Assembly (NCBI RefSeq): GCF_022846255.1
Contig: NZ_AP025682.1
DNA from: Escherichia coli
GTDB lineage: Bacteria; Pseudomonadota; Gammaproteobacteria; Enterobacterales; Enterobacteriaceae
Reading direction: 5' to 3' (one strand)
Length of the DNA: 64,000 nt
The number at the start of each line of letters is the position of its first letter. Within the stretch, counting starts at the first letter, position 1. Made by a program: the position numbers and the translations under genes. This document shows positions 7,635 to 60,854 of this stretch, one piece after another. The notes beneath the pieces are model-generated. The model did not search any database, was not told where the DNA came from, and saw nothing but the letters and a program-made list of their open reading frames with translations.

Positions 7635-9650
7635 ATGGCTGAACTGACTGCGCTTCACACATTAACAGCGCAAATGAAACGTGAAGGGATCCGCCGCTTG
7701 CTGGTGTTGAGCGGGGAAGAGCGTTGGTGTTTTGATCATGCGCTTAAGTTGCGTGATGCCTTACCTGGCGACTGGCTGTGGATTTCGCCGCAGCCAGATG
7801 CTGAAAACCACTGTTCTCCCTCGGCACTACAAACTTTACTTGGGCGCGAGTTCCGGCATGCGGTATTCGACGCCCGCCACGGCTTTGATGCCGCTGCCTT
7901 TGCGGCACTTAGCGGAACGTTGAAAGCGGGAAGCTGGCTGGTGTTGTTACTCCCTGTATGGGATGAGTGGGAAAACCAACCTGATGCCGACTCGCTGCGC
8001 TGGAGTGATTGCCCTGACCCTATTGCGACGCCGCATTTTGTCCTGCACCTCAAACGTGTACTTACGGCGAATAACGACGCCATCCTCTGGCGGCAAAACC
8101 AGCCGTTCTCGTTGGCGCATTTTACTCCCCGTACTGACTGGCACTCCGCTACCGGCGCACCACAACCAGAACAACAGCAACTCTTACAGCAGCTACTGAC
8201 CATGCCGCCGGGCGTGGCAGCGGTAACTGCTGCGCGTGGGCGCGGTAAGTCGGCGTTGGCAGGGCAACTCATTTCTCGTATTGCGGGCAGTGCGATTGTC
8301 ACCGCGCCCGCAAAAGCGGCAACGGATGTACTGGCACAATTTGCGGGCGAGAAGTTTCGCTTTATTGCACCGGATGCCTTGTTAGCCAGCGATGAGCAAG
8401 CCGATTGGCTGGTGGTCGATGAAGCCGCAGCTATACCTGCGCCGTTGTTGCATCAACTGGTATCGCGTTTTCCTCGAACGTTGTTAACCACTACGGTGCA
8501 GGGCTACGAAGGCACCGGACGTGGTTTTTTGCTGAAATTTTGCGCTCGCTTTCCGCATTTACACCGTTTTGAACTACAACAGCCGATCCGTTGGGCGCAG
8601 GGATGCCCGCTGGAAAAAATGGTTAGTGAGGCACTGGTGTTTGACGATGAAAACTTCACCCATACACCACAAGGCAATATCGTTATTTCCGCATTTGAAC
8701 AGACGTTATGGCGAAGCGAGCCAGAAACGCCGTTAAAGGTTTATCAATTATTGTCTGGTGCGCACTACCGGACTTCGCCGCTGGATTTACGCCGCATGAT
8801 GGATGCACCAGGTCAACATTTTTTACAGGCGGCTGGCGAAAACGAGATTGCCGGAGCGCTGTGGCTGGTGGATGAGGGTGGATTATCTCAAGAACTCAGT
8901 CAGGCGGTATGGGCGGGTTATCGTCGTCCACGGGGCAATCTGGTGGCTCAATCGCTGGCGGCGCACGGCAGCAATCCACTGGCGGCGACATTGCGCGGAC
9001 GGCGGGTCAGCCGGATAGCAGTTCATCCGGCGCGTCAGCGGGAAGGCACAGGGCGGCAACTTATTGCTGGTGCTTTGCAATATACGCAGGACCTCGACTA
9101 TCTTTCGGTGAGTTTTGGTTACACCGGGGAATTATGGCGTTTCTGGCAACGCTGCGGTTTTGTGCTGGTGCGAATGGGTAATCATCGTGAAGCCAGCAGC
9201 GGTTGCTATACGGCGATGGCGCTGTTACCGATGAGTGATGCGGGTAAACAACTGGCTGAACGTGAGCATTACCGTTTACGTCGCGATGCGCAAGCTCTCG
9301 CGCAGTGGAATGGCGAAATGCTTCCTGTTGATCCACTAAACGATGCCGTCCTTTCTGACGACGACTGGCTTGAACTGGCCGGTTTTGCTTTCACTCATCG
9401 TCCGCTATTAACATCGTTAGGTTGCTTATTGCGTTTGCTACAAACCAGCGAACTGGCATTACCGGCGCTGCGTGGGCGTTTACAGAAAAACGCCAGTGAC
9501 GCGCAGTTATGTACCACACTTAAACTTTCAGGCCGTAAGCTGTTACTGGTTCGCCAGCGGGAAGAGGCCGCGCAGGCGCTATTCGCACTTGATGATGTTC
9601 GCACTGAGCGTCTGCGCGATCGCATAACGCAATGGCAATTTTTTCACTGA
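7635..9650 (+). CDS. tmcA: tRNA(Met) cytidine acetyltransferase TmcA (671 aa)
   Basis: ATPase/helicase-like region with GRGKS Walker A plus C-terminal acetyltransferase region; length matches TmcA. Confidence 0.9.
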   Translation: MAELTALHTLTAQMKREGIRRLLVLSGEERWCFDHALKLRDALPGDWLWISPQPDAENHCSPSALQTLLGREFRHAVFDARHGFDAAAFAALSGTLKAGSWLVLLLPVWDEWENQPDADSLRWSDCPDPIATPHFVLHLKRVLTANNDAILWRQNQPFSLAHFTPRTDWHSATGAPQPEQQQLLQQLLTMPPGVAAVTAARGRGKSALAGQLISRIAGSAIVTAPAKAATDVLAQFAGEKFRFIAPDALLASDEQADWLVVDEAAAIPAPLLHQLVSRFPRTLLTTTVQGYEGTGRGFLLKFCARFPHLHRFELQQPIRWAQGCPLEKMVSEALVFDDENFTHTPQGNIVISAFEQTLWRSEPETPLKVYQLLSGAHYRTSPLDLRRMMDAPGQHFLQAAGENEIAGALWLVDEGGLSQELSQAVWAGYRRPRGNLVAQSLAAHGSNPLAATLRGRRVSRIAVHPARQREGTGRQLIAGALQYTQDLDYLSVSFGYTGELWRFWQRCGFVLVRMGNHREASSGCYTAMALLPMSDAGKQLAEREHYRLRRDAQALAQWNGEMLPVDPLNDAVLSDDDWLELAGFAFTHRPLLTSLGCLLRLLQTSELALPALRGRLQKNASDAQLCTTLKLSGRKLLLVRQREEAAQALFALDDVRTERLRDRITQWQFFH

Positions 9651-27393: not shown

Positions 27394-27641
27394 GGTTTAG
27401 CTGCAATATATTAGTAAAGTTTATTACTGAGTTTGCGAATAATAAAAAAATCAGTATATAAAATATCTCGATATTATTTTATTTATATTCATGCGTTGCA
27501 TATGAAAGTTTATGCACCACATCAAATATCTCTCCATTCTTAGTGATCTACCTCACCTTTTAAACGCGCTTGCCGAATTTTGTTATTTACTCTGACGAAA
27601 AATTGTCACGATACACGAAAGTTTTTCACAGGCGGCGACTC
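27394..27641 (+). promoter_or_regulatory. AT-rich eut operon upstream region (expected main promoter and EutR target)
   Basis: About 250 bp strongly AT-rich between the maeB terminator palindrome and eutS; exact -35/-10 not assigned. Confidence 0.4.
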
Positions 27642-57469: not shown

Positions 57470-59197
57470 TTAGCAGATTGTTTTTTCTTCAATGAACTTG
57501 TTAACCAGCGTCATTAACTCGTCCGTTGTCGGTTGAGCAAGAGCCTGCTCTGCTAACACCTTCGCATCTTCGAAGTTCGTGTTACGGATAATCTTCTTAA
57601 TGCGCGGGATAGAAATGGCGCTCATAGAGAATTCGTCCAGACCCATCCCCAGCAACAGAAGTGTAGCACGTTCATCGCCTGCAAGCTCACCACACATGCC
57701 AGTCCATTTGCCTTCAGCATGAGAAGCATCAATAACTTGCTTGATCAAGTTCAGCACGGACGGTGACATTGGCTGGTAAAGGTGTGAAATCATATCATTA
57801 CCACGGTCAACTGCCAGAGTGTACTGCGTTAAATCATTGGTGCCGATACTAAAGAAATCAACTTCTTTGGCTAAATGACGTGCAATTGTTGCGGCAGCCG
57901 GTGTTTCCACCATTACGCCGATTTCAATTGACTCGTCAAACGCTTTACCTTCGTCGCGCAGTTCCTGTTTGTAGATTTCGATCTCTTTGCGCAGTGCACG
58001 TACTTCTTCAACAGAGATGATCATCGGGAACATAATGCGCAATTTACCGAAAGCCGAGGCACGCAGGATAGCGCGGAGCTGATCGCGCAGGATCTCTTTA
58101 CGATCCATCGCGATACGGATAGCGCGCCAGCCGAGGAACGGGTTCTCTTCTTTCGGGAAGTTCATGTATGGCAGCTCTTTGTCGCCGCCGATGTCCATGG
58201 TACGAACGATAACCGCCTGCGAGCCACACGCTTCAGCCACTGCTTTGTAAGCAGCAAACTGTTCTTCTTCAGTGGGCAGCGCGTCGCGGTCCATGAACAG
58301 GAACTCAGTACGATACAGACCAACGCCTTCAGCGCCGTTACGCTCTGCACCTTCAACGTCACGAACCGTACCAATGTTAGCGCACACTTCTACCTGGTGA
58401 CCGTCCAGCGTAATAGCTGGCAGATCTTTCAGTTTAGCAAGCTCTGCTTTTTCAGAAGCCACTTGCTCCTGAACAGCGCGCATTTTATCAATAACTTCGT
58501 TGGTTGGATTGACGTAAACCTGATTATTTACGGCATCCAGAATCAGATAGTCGTCATTTTTCACCTGAGAGGTGACGCTACCGGTACCCACGATAGCAGG
58601 CAGTTCCAGAGAACGCGCCATGATAGAGGTGTGGGAAGTACGGCCACCCGCGTCGGTGATGAAACCCAGCACCTTCTTCAGGTTCAGCTGTGCGGTTTCG
58701 GACGGCGTCAGGTCAGCGGCAACCAGAATGACTTCATCCTGAATGGCGCTCAGGTCGATAATCTTCAGGCCCAGGATGTTGCGCAGCAGGCGCTTACCGA
58801 TATCACGTACGTCAGCCGCACGTTCTTTCAGGTATTCATCATCCAGCTCTTCCAGGGCAGAAGCCTGACCTTCGATAACTTCATGAGCAGCTGCGTCAGC
58901 TGTCATGTGCTTATCTTTAATCAGGGCTATGATTTCCTGCTCCAGCTCCTCATCTTCGAGCAGCATAATATGCCCTTCAAAGATGGCTTCTTTTTCTTCA
59001 CCGAACGTTTCACCAGCTTTCGTTTTGATCGTTTCCAGCTGGGCTGATGCCTTGGCACGACCGCTCAGAAAACGTTCAACTTCCTGATCAACCTGGTCGG
59101 CAGAAATTTTTTTCCGGTCAATGACAATTTCGTCTTCTTTCAGAAGCAGAGCTTTACCGAAAGCGATACCCGGGGATGCTAAAATGCCTGAAATCAT
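57470..59197 (-). CDS. ptsI: PTS enzyme I (PtsI, 575 aa)
   Basis: ORF track; [23 protein letters not shown]. Confidence 0.97.
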
Positions 59198-59241: not shown

Positions 59242-59499
59242 TTACTCGAGTTCCGCCATCAGTTTAACCAGATGTTCAACCGCTTTCTGCTCGTCTTCGC
59301 CTTCTGCGGAGATAGTCACAACGGTACCTTGAGTCAGGCCCAGAGTCTGCAGTTTAAACAGGCTTTTCGCGCTGGCGCTTTTGCCGTTGGAAGTCACAGT
59401 AATTTCAGAAGTGAAGCCCTTAGCTTCTTTTACAAACTGGGCAGCAGGGCGGGTGTGCAGACCGTTCGGAGCGGTAATGGTAACTTCTTGCTGGAACAT
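59242..59499 (-). CDS. ptsH: PTS phosphocarrier protein HPr (85 aa)
   Basis: ORF track; [27 protein letters not shown] with active-site His15. Confidence 0.97.
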
Positions 59500-59832
59500 T
59501 GTATTTCCCCAACTTATAGGTTTAGTGTTGTGGAACTAAAGTCTAGCCTGGCGGTTCGACTTTAGCCTGTATTGTTAGCGCCAGTTTTTAACAGACGCGA
59601 CACACGAAGAGCGCAATACAGTCCATTGCTGGCGGGTGTTGACCGCTGACGTTTCGTACGTCATTAAACATTATGCCGCTAAAGGAAGAATTGAACCAAA
59701 TCATAAAATCGATTCAGCTTTGGCTTTTCCTGTAACGATTAATTTCGCGCATCAAAATAATTAGTCTGGTTAAATACCAGTTCCGACAGGCTGAATCAAT
59801 GCCAGGAGGGGCGAAAGTTTGAAGCAGGCCAC

Positions 59833-59860
59833 AAAAAAGCACCTGAAAAGGTGCTTTTTT
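59833..59860 (-). terminator. terminator after cysK
   Basis: aaaaaagcacctgaaaaggtgctttttt; hairpin with flanking A and T runs about 23 nt past the cysK stop. Confidence 0.7.
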
Positions 59861-59882
59861 ACGCATTTTTAACAAGCTGGCA

Positions 59883-60854
59883 TTACTGTTGCAGTTCTTT
59901 CTCAGTGAAGAGATCGGCAAACAATGCGGTGCTTAAATAACGCTCACCCGATGACGGCAGAATAACCACAATATTCTTATTGGTAAAGCTTTCATCTTCT
60001 TGTAGTTTCAACGCCGCAGCAACAGCTGCTCCAGAAGAGATACCAGCAAGAATACCTTCTTCTTCCATCAGACGACGTGCGGTAGAAATGGCTTCTTCAT
60101 TGGTGATGCCAATGACTTTGTCGACCAGCTTGAGATCAAGGTTAGCCGGGATAAAACCAGCGCCAATACCCTGAATTTTATGCGGACCAGGTTTAATCTC
60201 TTCACCTGCCAGCGCCTGGGCGATAACTGGAGAATCGGTTGGCTCAACGGCGACAGAGATAAGATCGGTCTTGCCTTTGGTGCCTTTAATGTAGCGGCTG
60301 ACGCCAGTCAGCGTACCGCCAGTCCCAACGCCAGCAATAAATACATCAACCTGACCGTCGGTATCTTCCCAGATCTCCGGACCGGTGGTTTTTTCGTGAA
60401 TTTCAGGGTTTGCCGGATTGCTGAATTGTTGCAGCAGCAGGTATTTCTCTGGATTGCTGGCGACAATTTCTTCTGCTTTTTGGATTGCGCCTTTCATGCC
60501 TTTAGCACCTTCGGTCAGCACCAGGTTTGCACCTAACGCTTTCAGCAGCTTGCGGCGTTCAATACTCATGGTTTCTGGCATAGTCAGGGTGAGTTTGTAA
60601 CCGCGAGCGGCAGCGACATAGGCCAGTGCAATCCCGGTATTACCGCTGGTTGGTTCAACCAGTTCAACGCCTGGTTTCAGCACGCCGCGCTTCTCGGCAT
60701 CCCAAATCATGTTGGCACCGATACGGCACTTAACGCTGAAGCTGGGGTTACGAGATTCCACCTTCGCCAGAATGCGTCCGTTACCGATGCGATTCAGGCG
60801 AACCAGCGGCGTGTGACCGATAGTCAGCGAGTTATCTTCAAAAATCTTACTCAT
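59883..60854 (-). CDS. cysK: cysteine synthase A CysK (323 aa)
   Basis: ORF track; PLP-binding lysine context [11 protein letters not shown]. Confidence 0.97.

Follow-up and report, generated by a model that had tools for sequence, protein, structure and literature searches.

A probable Mlc operator at the pts P0 promoter in the cysK–ptsH gap of Escherichia coli and its conservation across Enterobacterales

Expression of ptsHI is repressed by Mlc together with that of ptsG and manXYZ (PMC8085971, PMC4393010, PMC10100716), and Mlc is itself sequestered by dephosphorylated EIIB-Glc during glucose transport (PMC10100716, PMC4393010). CRP sites have also been reported in the ptsHI promoter (PMC8085971), such that the regulation by Mlc and CRP that was stated in a first-pass annotation of the DNA analyzed here is documented in the literature. 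In addition, Cra represses ptsHI (PMC8085971, PMC4393010), and a P1a/P1b promoter pair has been named (PMC9995076). The operators of Mlc and NagC are 23-bp quasi-palindromes with nearly identical logos, in which the only invariant positions are TT at -6/-5 and AA at +5/+6, whose mutation abolishes repression; positions +/-11 are A/T in Mlc sites versus mostly C/G in high-affinity NagC sites (PMC4288165). Finally, a FITBAR scan of E. coli K-12 with a NagC matrix placed the 23-mer attattttgatgcgcgaaattaa at ptsH, at rank 15 genome-wide (PMC3098098).

Here, we analyzed the corresponding region in a stretch of 64,000 nucleotides of E. coli DNA (hereafter the window), which carries cysK-ptsH-ptsI, all on the minus strand. 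The promoters P0 and P1 of this locus are ~100 bp apart. Mlc has reportedly been footprinted on pts P0 by Kim et al. (1999, J Biol Chem 274:25398), Plumbridge (1999, Mol Microbiol 33:260) and Tanaka et al. (1999, Genes Cells 4:391). In the first of these studies, the footprint is said to extend from ~+1 to +25 of P0, with RNA polymerase binding being blocked and P1 being unaffected. Ryu and Garges 1994 are said to have found that CRP switches P1 between two starts.

The operator within the cysK–ptsH gap

Based on open reading frames and annotation, ptsH (HPr, 85 aa), the first gene of ptsH-ptsI-crr, occupies positions 59242-59499, and its upstream neighbour cysK (cysteine synthase A, 323 aa, as annotated in E. 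coli genomes) occupies positions 59883-60854; the ptsI coding sequence lies at 57470-59197 (all minus strand). The gap between cysK and ptsH hence corresponds exactly to positions 59500-59882 (383 bp). Compared to K-12 MG1655, 381 of the 383 bases are identical, and the two substitutions, of which one affects the cysK terminator loop and the other a poorly conserved part of the 5' UTR, are both located outside the operator, so that findings established for K-12 transfer to the window. A 551-nt query across the gap matched 5,425 of 5,426 complete E. coli genomes, with annotated ptsH and cysK, and this 551-nt region was at least 99% identical in 4,381 of 5,428 E. coli records. For the 76-nt segment containing P0 plus the operator, the same level of identity (at least 99%) was observed in 5,402 of 5,427 records.

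The gap had initially been described as unusually long. It is indeed long, ranking second in length among the ~43 gaps that separate adjacent features within 50 kb of annotated K-12 sequence around the locus (compare alaC-pyrS, 375 bp, and lpxP-ypdK, 355 bp), but it is not extreme, as frc-yfdX reaches 512 bp. Across more than 100 Enterobacterales loci, the gap length ranged from 317 to 630 bp, and this conserved length fits a region packed with control signals. Expanded gaps of 480-630 bp were encountered in Photorhabdus (four loci), Yersinia pestis and Y. similis. In these species, the operator is located 340-410 nt from the ATG, versus ~250 nt in most genera, indicating that the extra DNA was inserted in the leader.

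A terminator scan identified an intrinsic terminator at 59833-59860 (minus strand), consisting of A6, GCACC, the loop UUUUCA, GGUGC and U6. Its stem and U-tract were at least 95% conserved in an alignment of 101 distinct Enterobacterales gaps, and the hairpin presumably serves as the terminator of cysK in particular.

Two database entries related to this region deserve mention. The cysK-ptsH promoter segment is found with 98.7% identity at positions 8300-8374 of NZ_CP098226.1 (E. coli Z0117EC0005, 50,485 bp), which could be either a piece of the chromosome that was deposited as a plasmid or a genuinely mobilised copy; two to three plasmid matches to the segment were counted by the search. Furthermore, an entry labelled Chryseobacterium sp. 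18061 (CACSKA010000009.1) carries an enterobacterial ptsH leader that is identical to the one of Pluralibacter gergoviae over 132 aligned bases, except for the first aligned position, and the assembly looks like a case of contamination or mislabelling.

The motif singled out in the first-pass annotation, ttaatttcgcgcatcaaaataatt, is present on the plus strand at 59739-59762, a few bases away from the approximate position originally given for it (59735 to 59760). In gene orientation, the operator reads ATTATTTTGATGCGCGAAATTAA (59761-59739) or, in an alternative register shifted rightwards by one base, TTATTTTGATGCGCGAAATTAAT (59760-59738). TT-N9-AA is satisfied by both readings, leaving the register ambiguous by 1 bp, and the feature is therefore given here as 59738-59762 (minus strand), the equivalent of 2,533,501-2,533,525 in K-12. 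In either register, the ptsH site satisfies all published sequence rules, namely a 23-bp quasi-palindrome with TT at -6/-5 and AA at +5/+6, and the residues at +/-11 are A/A or T/T, depending on the register, which corresponds to the Mlc signature. TT-N9-AA is satisfied by only 308 of the 63,978 23-mers in the window. As this is the defining feature, the earlier wording of the motif as TT-N-CGCG-N-AA was a loose description, in which the central CGCG is common, though not required.

The window was scored with two matrices. The NagC matrix was built from the 10 published NagC operators of FITBAR Table 1 (PMC3098098), a set from which ptsH is absent. With this matrix, positions 59739-59761 scored 17.0 bits and ranked first among 63,978 positions, the leave-one-out scores of the 10 training sites being 11.0-21.9 bits. 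Scores of at least 17.0 bits were reached at 6 positions of a 5 Mb first-order Markov sequence (1.2e-6 per position), which amounts to 0.0004 expected per 383 bp. The Mlc matrix was built from the ptsG1, ptsG2, manX proximal, malT and mlc operators (four loci), whose registers were hand-checked against the TT/AA rule; these five comparison operators were located in this analysis in K-12 promoters known as Mlc-regulated and do not stem from a published table. Here, the two ptsH registers scored 15.2 and 15.0 bits and ranked first and second in the window, within the leave-one-out range of the five sites (11.6-18.9 bits) and against a background of ~4e-6 per position. Considering both matrices, the chance expectation of an operator match is ~0.0004-0.0015 per 383 bp.

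The matrix scan that had been proposed as a check hence returned the same site as top match in the 64-kb window with the NagC and the Mlc matrices alike, and the ptsH 23-mer listed by FITBAR is identical to the window site. No comparable second operator was found in the matrix scans of 59500-59882. The first-pass annotation had allowed for an Mlc operator mapping elsewhere in this region; however, the gap holds no rival candidate site. A weaker NagC-matrix match at 59756-59778 (11.7 bits) overlaps the operator by 6 bp and includes the -10, and we regard it as AT-rich promoter DNA and not as a second operator. The second-best NagC-matrix match in the window (42889-42911, GTTTATCCGCGTTACAAAAAATG, 14.6 bits) lies inside a 300-aa open reading frame (42486-43388) and is probably due to chance.

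Apart from the pts locus, we observed a further 23-mer at 27582-27604 (GTTATTTACTCTGACGAAAAATT), which the NagC and Mlc matrices scored at 10.9-13.2 bits and which equals the one listed near eutS at rank 19 in K-12 (FITBAR, PMC3098098). From its sequence, it is possibly a weak NagC/Mlc-type site of the eut region.

Operator conservation and alternative readings

To compare the operator across Enterobacterales, ptsH loci were retrieved by means of a degenerate pattern for the first 16 HPr codons, which yielded 120 loci (one genome per species). Enough upstream DNA was available in 115 of them, covering 43 genera that span Escherichia to Photorhabdus, Xenorhabdus, Providencia, Arsenophonus, Edwardsiella, Yersinia, Erwinia and Pantoea. 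All of these ptsH loci (115/115) had a site scoring at least 15 bits. The genus-weighted information content was 2.0 bits at positions -10 to -5 (TTATTT), -3, +5 to +8 and +10, dropped to ~0.7-0.8 bits for -1 and +2, and was close to 0 outside -12 to +13/+14. As judged from the alignment, the combination of two invariant arms (TTATTT and AAATTAA), a variable centre and sharp edges at -12/+13 has the form of a site for a dimeric protein. This order-wide conservation of the operator in 43 genera is added by the present analysis, as is the placement of a P0 CRP site with support of the same kind (see below).

The similarity of the two operator types raises the question of whether the site might be a NagC operator, which would link ptsHI to N-acetylglucosamine-6-phosphate instead of to glucose transport via Mlc. 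The logos of Mlc and NagC can hardly be told apart (PMC4288165), it was the NagC matrix that detected the ptsH site first in our analysis, and FITBAR has ptsH among its NagC-matrix matches, at the rank indicated above. However, both +/-11 residues are A or T, in the window as well as in all 115 orthologous sites, which is the signature of Mlc, high-affinity NagC sites having mostly C/G at these positions. Moreover, cross-regulation is absent according to published work, and it is Mlc that is named as the ptsHI repressor (PMC8085971, PMC4393010, PMC10100716). We consequently consider a NagC operator at this position to be improbable. More improbable still is an accidental match of AT-rich DNA, in which case the conserved block would belong to the P0 core promoter or to the first transcribed stretch, or would form an RNA hairpin at the 5' end of the P0 transcript: although the site is rich in A and T and adjoins the -10, although the overlapping match at 59756-59778 illustrates that AT-rich promoter DNA can score moderately, and although the quasi-palindrome could form a weak AU-rich hairpin, the low chance expectation and the conservation profile described above both speak against an accident, and an RNA helix is disfavored by changes at -4/+4 that do not preserve pairing (Rouxiella and several Serratia, for instance, combine C at -4 with A at +4).

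Taken together, the published sequence rules, the first rank in the window, the FITBAR 23-mer and the conservation in 43 genera support the initial proposal of an Mlc/NagC-type operator upstream of ptsH. Judging from sequence, we assign a probability of roughly 0.93 to the reading that the ROK-family protein Mlc represses P0 of ptsH-ptsI-crr by way of an operator at 59738-59762 (minus strand). This operator is already known, nothing new follows from finding the Mlc site again, and no novel interpretation is left for the operator itself. It can, however, serve as a positive control for sequence-only reading, as a true 23-bp operator was picked from 64 kb, and matrices together with phylogenetic footprinting recover the site unambiguously.

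Promoter elements and a hairpin in the ptsH leader

A stringent scan of 59400-59950 identified no sigma-70 promoter, which fits with P0 and P1 being weak, activator-dependent promoters; their elements were placed here by weak hexamers, conservation and spacing. The putative extended -10 of P0, TGgTATTTA (59771-59779, minus strand; TATTTA, 3/6 matches), is conserved in the alignment, and the putative -35, TTGATT (59794-59799, minus strand; 4/6 matches), located 17 nt upstream of the -10, is partly conserved. In 104/115 loci, the pattern TAT[TA][TA]A preceded the operator centre by 24-27 nt. From these weak -10/-35 elements, the P0 start would be expected at ~59762-59765. The operator begins 9-10 bp past the -10-like element and would accordingly extend from ~+1/+4 to +24/+27 relative to the inferred P0 start. 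In sequence terms, such a position just downstream of the -10 is consistent with repression of P0 by blocking RNA polymerase.

The CRP site, which had been left unplaced in the first-pass annotation, is now predicted at 59833-59818 (core TGTGGCCTGCTTCAAA, no strand assigned) on the basis of its consensus match, its conservation and a near-constant spacing. It has 8/10 matches to TGTGA-N6-TCACA, with 0.14 such sites expected per 383 bp, and its core is conserved at 0.95 versus 0.49 for the spacer. In 43/43 genera, TGTGN-N6-TCA(A/T/C)A was the best of the CRP-like sites preceding the operator, and in 113/115 loci the distance from this upstream site to the operator centre was 72.5-75.5 nt. The centre of the predicted P0 site (59825.5) is at ~-61.5 from the inferred P0 start (taken at ~59764), a start that would place the operator at ~+4 to +26. 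The left half of the CRP site (TGTGG) extends into the U-tract of the cysK terminator by one base, the last U, an arrangement which is conserved in the 43 genera, so that cysK termination and ptsH P0 activation would share DNA.

Further downstream, a candidate Cra (FruR) site, GCTGAATCGATTTTAT, is located at 59718-59703 (no strand assigned). It shows 12/16 matches to GCTGAATCGATTCAGC, which we take to be the imperfectly palindromic Cra consensus; its left 12 positions match perfectly, 0.01 such sites are expected per 383 bp, and its mean conservation is 0.80. A candidate second CRP site, TATGATTTGGTTCAAT (59705-59690, no strand assigned), upstream of and overlapping P1, is a weaker consensus match with 7/10 positions, which alone is at chance level, ~1.2 sites with at least 7 matches being expected per 383 bp, and the conservation of its core is only 0.56. 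It would be centred at ~-41.5 from one P1 start and at ~-33.5 from the other, with P1 transcripts expected to begin at ~59656-59664. Two overlapping -10-like hexamers of P1, 7 nt apart (CATAAT, 59675-59670, and TTTAAT, 59668-59663; minus strand), are moderately conserved, and we infer that they represent the published P1a/P1b pair (PMC9995076).

At the inferred P1 start, we also noticed a 17-bp palindrome, TGACGTACGAAACGTCA (59662-59646, minus strand), in which TGACGT and ACGTCA form a perfect 6-bp inverted repeat around ACGAA. The palindrome shows poor conservation beyond close relatives and may represent a 5'-terminal hairpin of the E. coli P1 transcript only.

Downstream of these elements, the 84-nt leader is predicted to fold, in its minimum-free-energy structure (-19.2 kcal/mol, z = -2.85), into a hairpin at 59567-59534 (minus strand), formed by GGCUAAAGUC (59567-59558), a 14-nt loop and GACUUUAGUU (59543-59534). 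The hairpin is followed on its 3' side by an invariant CA-rich stretch, CCACAACAC, and then by the ptsH Shine-Dalgarno region GGGGAAA (59504-59510, minus strand), which is invariant in 33/33 aligned sequences. We tested the hairpin as a named structure on 33 sequences from ~30 genera, the structure being derived from these same, mutually related sequences: 83.7% of the hairpin cells were pairing, versus 74.4 +/- 1.2% in shuffles and 20-61% in slid controls, 9/10 pairs changed on both sides, and the covariation score was 0.422 versus 0.256, with 0/500 shuffles reaching the former value. The stem is kept with different sequences in Arsenophonus (AAUCCAAA/UUUGGAUU), Providencia (ACCUAG/CUGGGU) and Photorhabdus (AAGUUAAGA/UCUUAGCUU), and its variable loop length argues against the hairpin being a DNA-binding site.

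RNAalifold predicted no structure on the 33 leaders, a result which we attribute to MAFFT misalignment of the divergent genera. No Rfam family was matched in the ptsH leader at E <= 1 inside 59500-59830, the only Rfam matches being sub-threshold ones, RNAI-like on the cysK terminator and Leu_leader-like inside ptsH. An anti-Shine-Dalgarno helix (UCC.CAAC with GUUG.GGA) was also considered; it was 89.8% paired, but its covariation was not beyond that of shuffles, and this helix is not supported.

From the sequence comparison, we very tentatively suggest that the hairpin, the CA-rich stretch and the Shine-Dalgarno region form an undescribed post-transcriptional control or stability element, a reading which we hold to be rather doubtful at present. 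The observation of the hairpin may be new. If the suggestion is true, the hairpin would be carried by the P0 and P1 transcripts and could set HPr output independently of Mlc, CRP and Cra. A covarying ptsH-leader hairpin without an Rfam family may merit a small follow-up.

Proposed mechanism and relation to known systems

In the mechanism that we propose, Mlc would bind the 23-bp quasi-palindrome with its helix-turn-helix contacting TT/AA at +/-5, 6 and its linker contacting A/T at +/-11. Bound Mlc, covering ~+1/+4 to +24/+27, would prevent RNA polymerase from binding to or clearing P0. During glucose transport, dephosphorylated EIICB-Glc (PtsG) would hold Mlc at the membrane and leave P0 free, and the general PTS proteins would then rise along with ptsG and manXYZ. 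CRP-cAMP would activate P0 from the predicted class-I-type site ~61.5 bp upstream of the start (59833-59818), while P1, ~100 bp downstream of P0, would have its own weaker CRP-like site as well as a Cra site and would be outside Mlc control. The operator would belong to the textbook circuit that increases the general PTS proteins of enteric bacteria while glucose is transported. We take 59738-59762 to be the exact site of the 1999 Mlc footprints, and the anatomy found here agrees with each point given above on P0/P1, Mlc and CRP.

With regard to activation, ptsH P0 resembles class I CRP promoters such as lac P1 (CRP at -61.5), having TGTGN-N6-TCANA ~61.5 bp upstream of its inferred start, on which the value of -61.5 rests. 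It differs from them in that the left CRP half-site overlaps the last U of the cysK terminator.

The NagC operators (nagE-nagB, chbB, chiP, glmU, fimB and galP) have the same core logo, and the 17 bits of the ptsH site are within their range of 11.0-21.9 bits. In contrast to the high-affinity NagC sites, which have C/G at +/-11, the ptsH site has A/A or T/T, and whereas nagE-nagB has a second operator for DNA looping, the ptsH gap is without one.

The operators of ptsG P1/P2, manX proximal, malT and mlc have the 23-bp quasi-palindrome, TT-N9-AA and A/T at +/-11 in common with ptsH. The left arm of the ptsH site, TTATTT, is common to ptsG1 and mlc, and its right arm, AATTAAT, is common to ptsG2. 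Its centre, GATGCGCG, is unlike that of every other Mlc site, the centre not being conserved among sites, and ptsH has one operator whereas ptsG has two.

The closest likeness is to the Mlc operator of E. coli K-12 pts P0, which has the same locus and the same 23-mer as given by FITBAR, with no difference detectable. Likewise, the footprint said to extend from ~+1 to +25 of P0 agrees with the position of the window site just downstream of the P0 -10.
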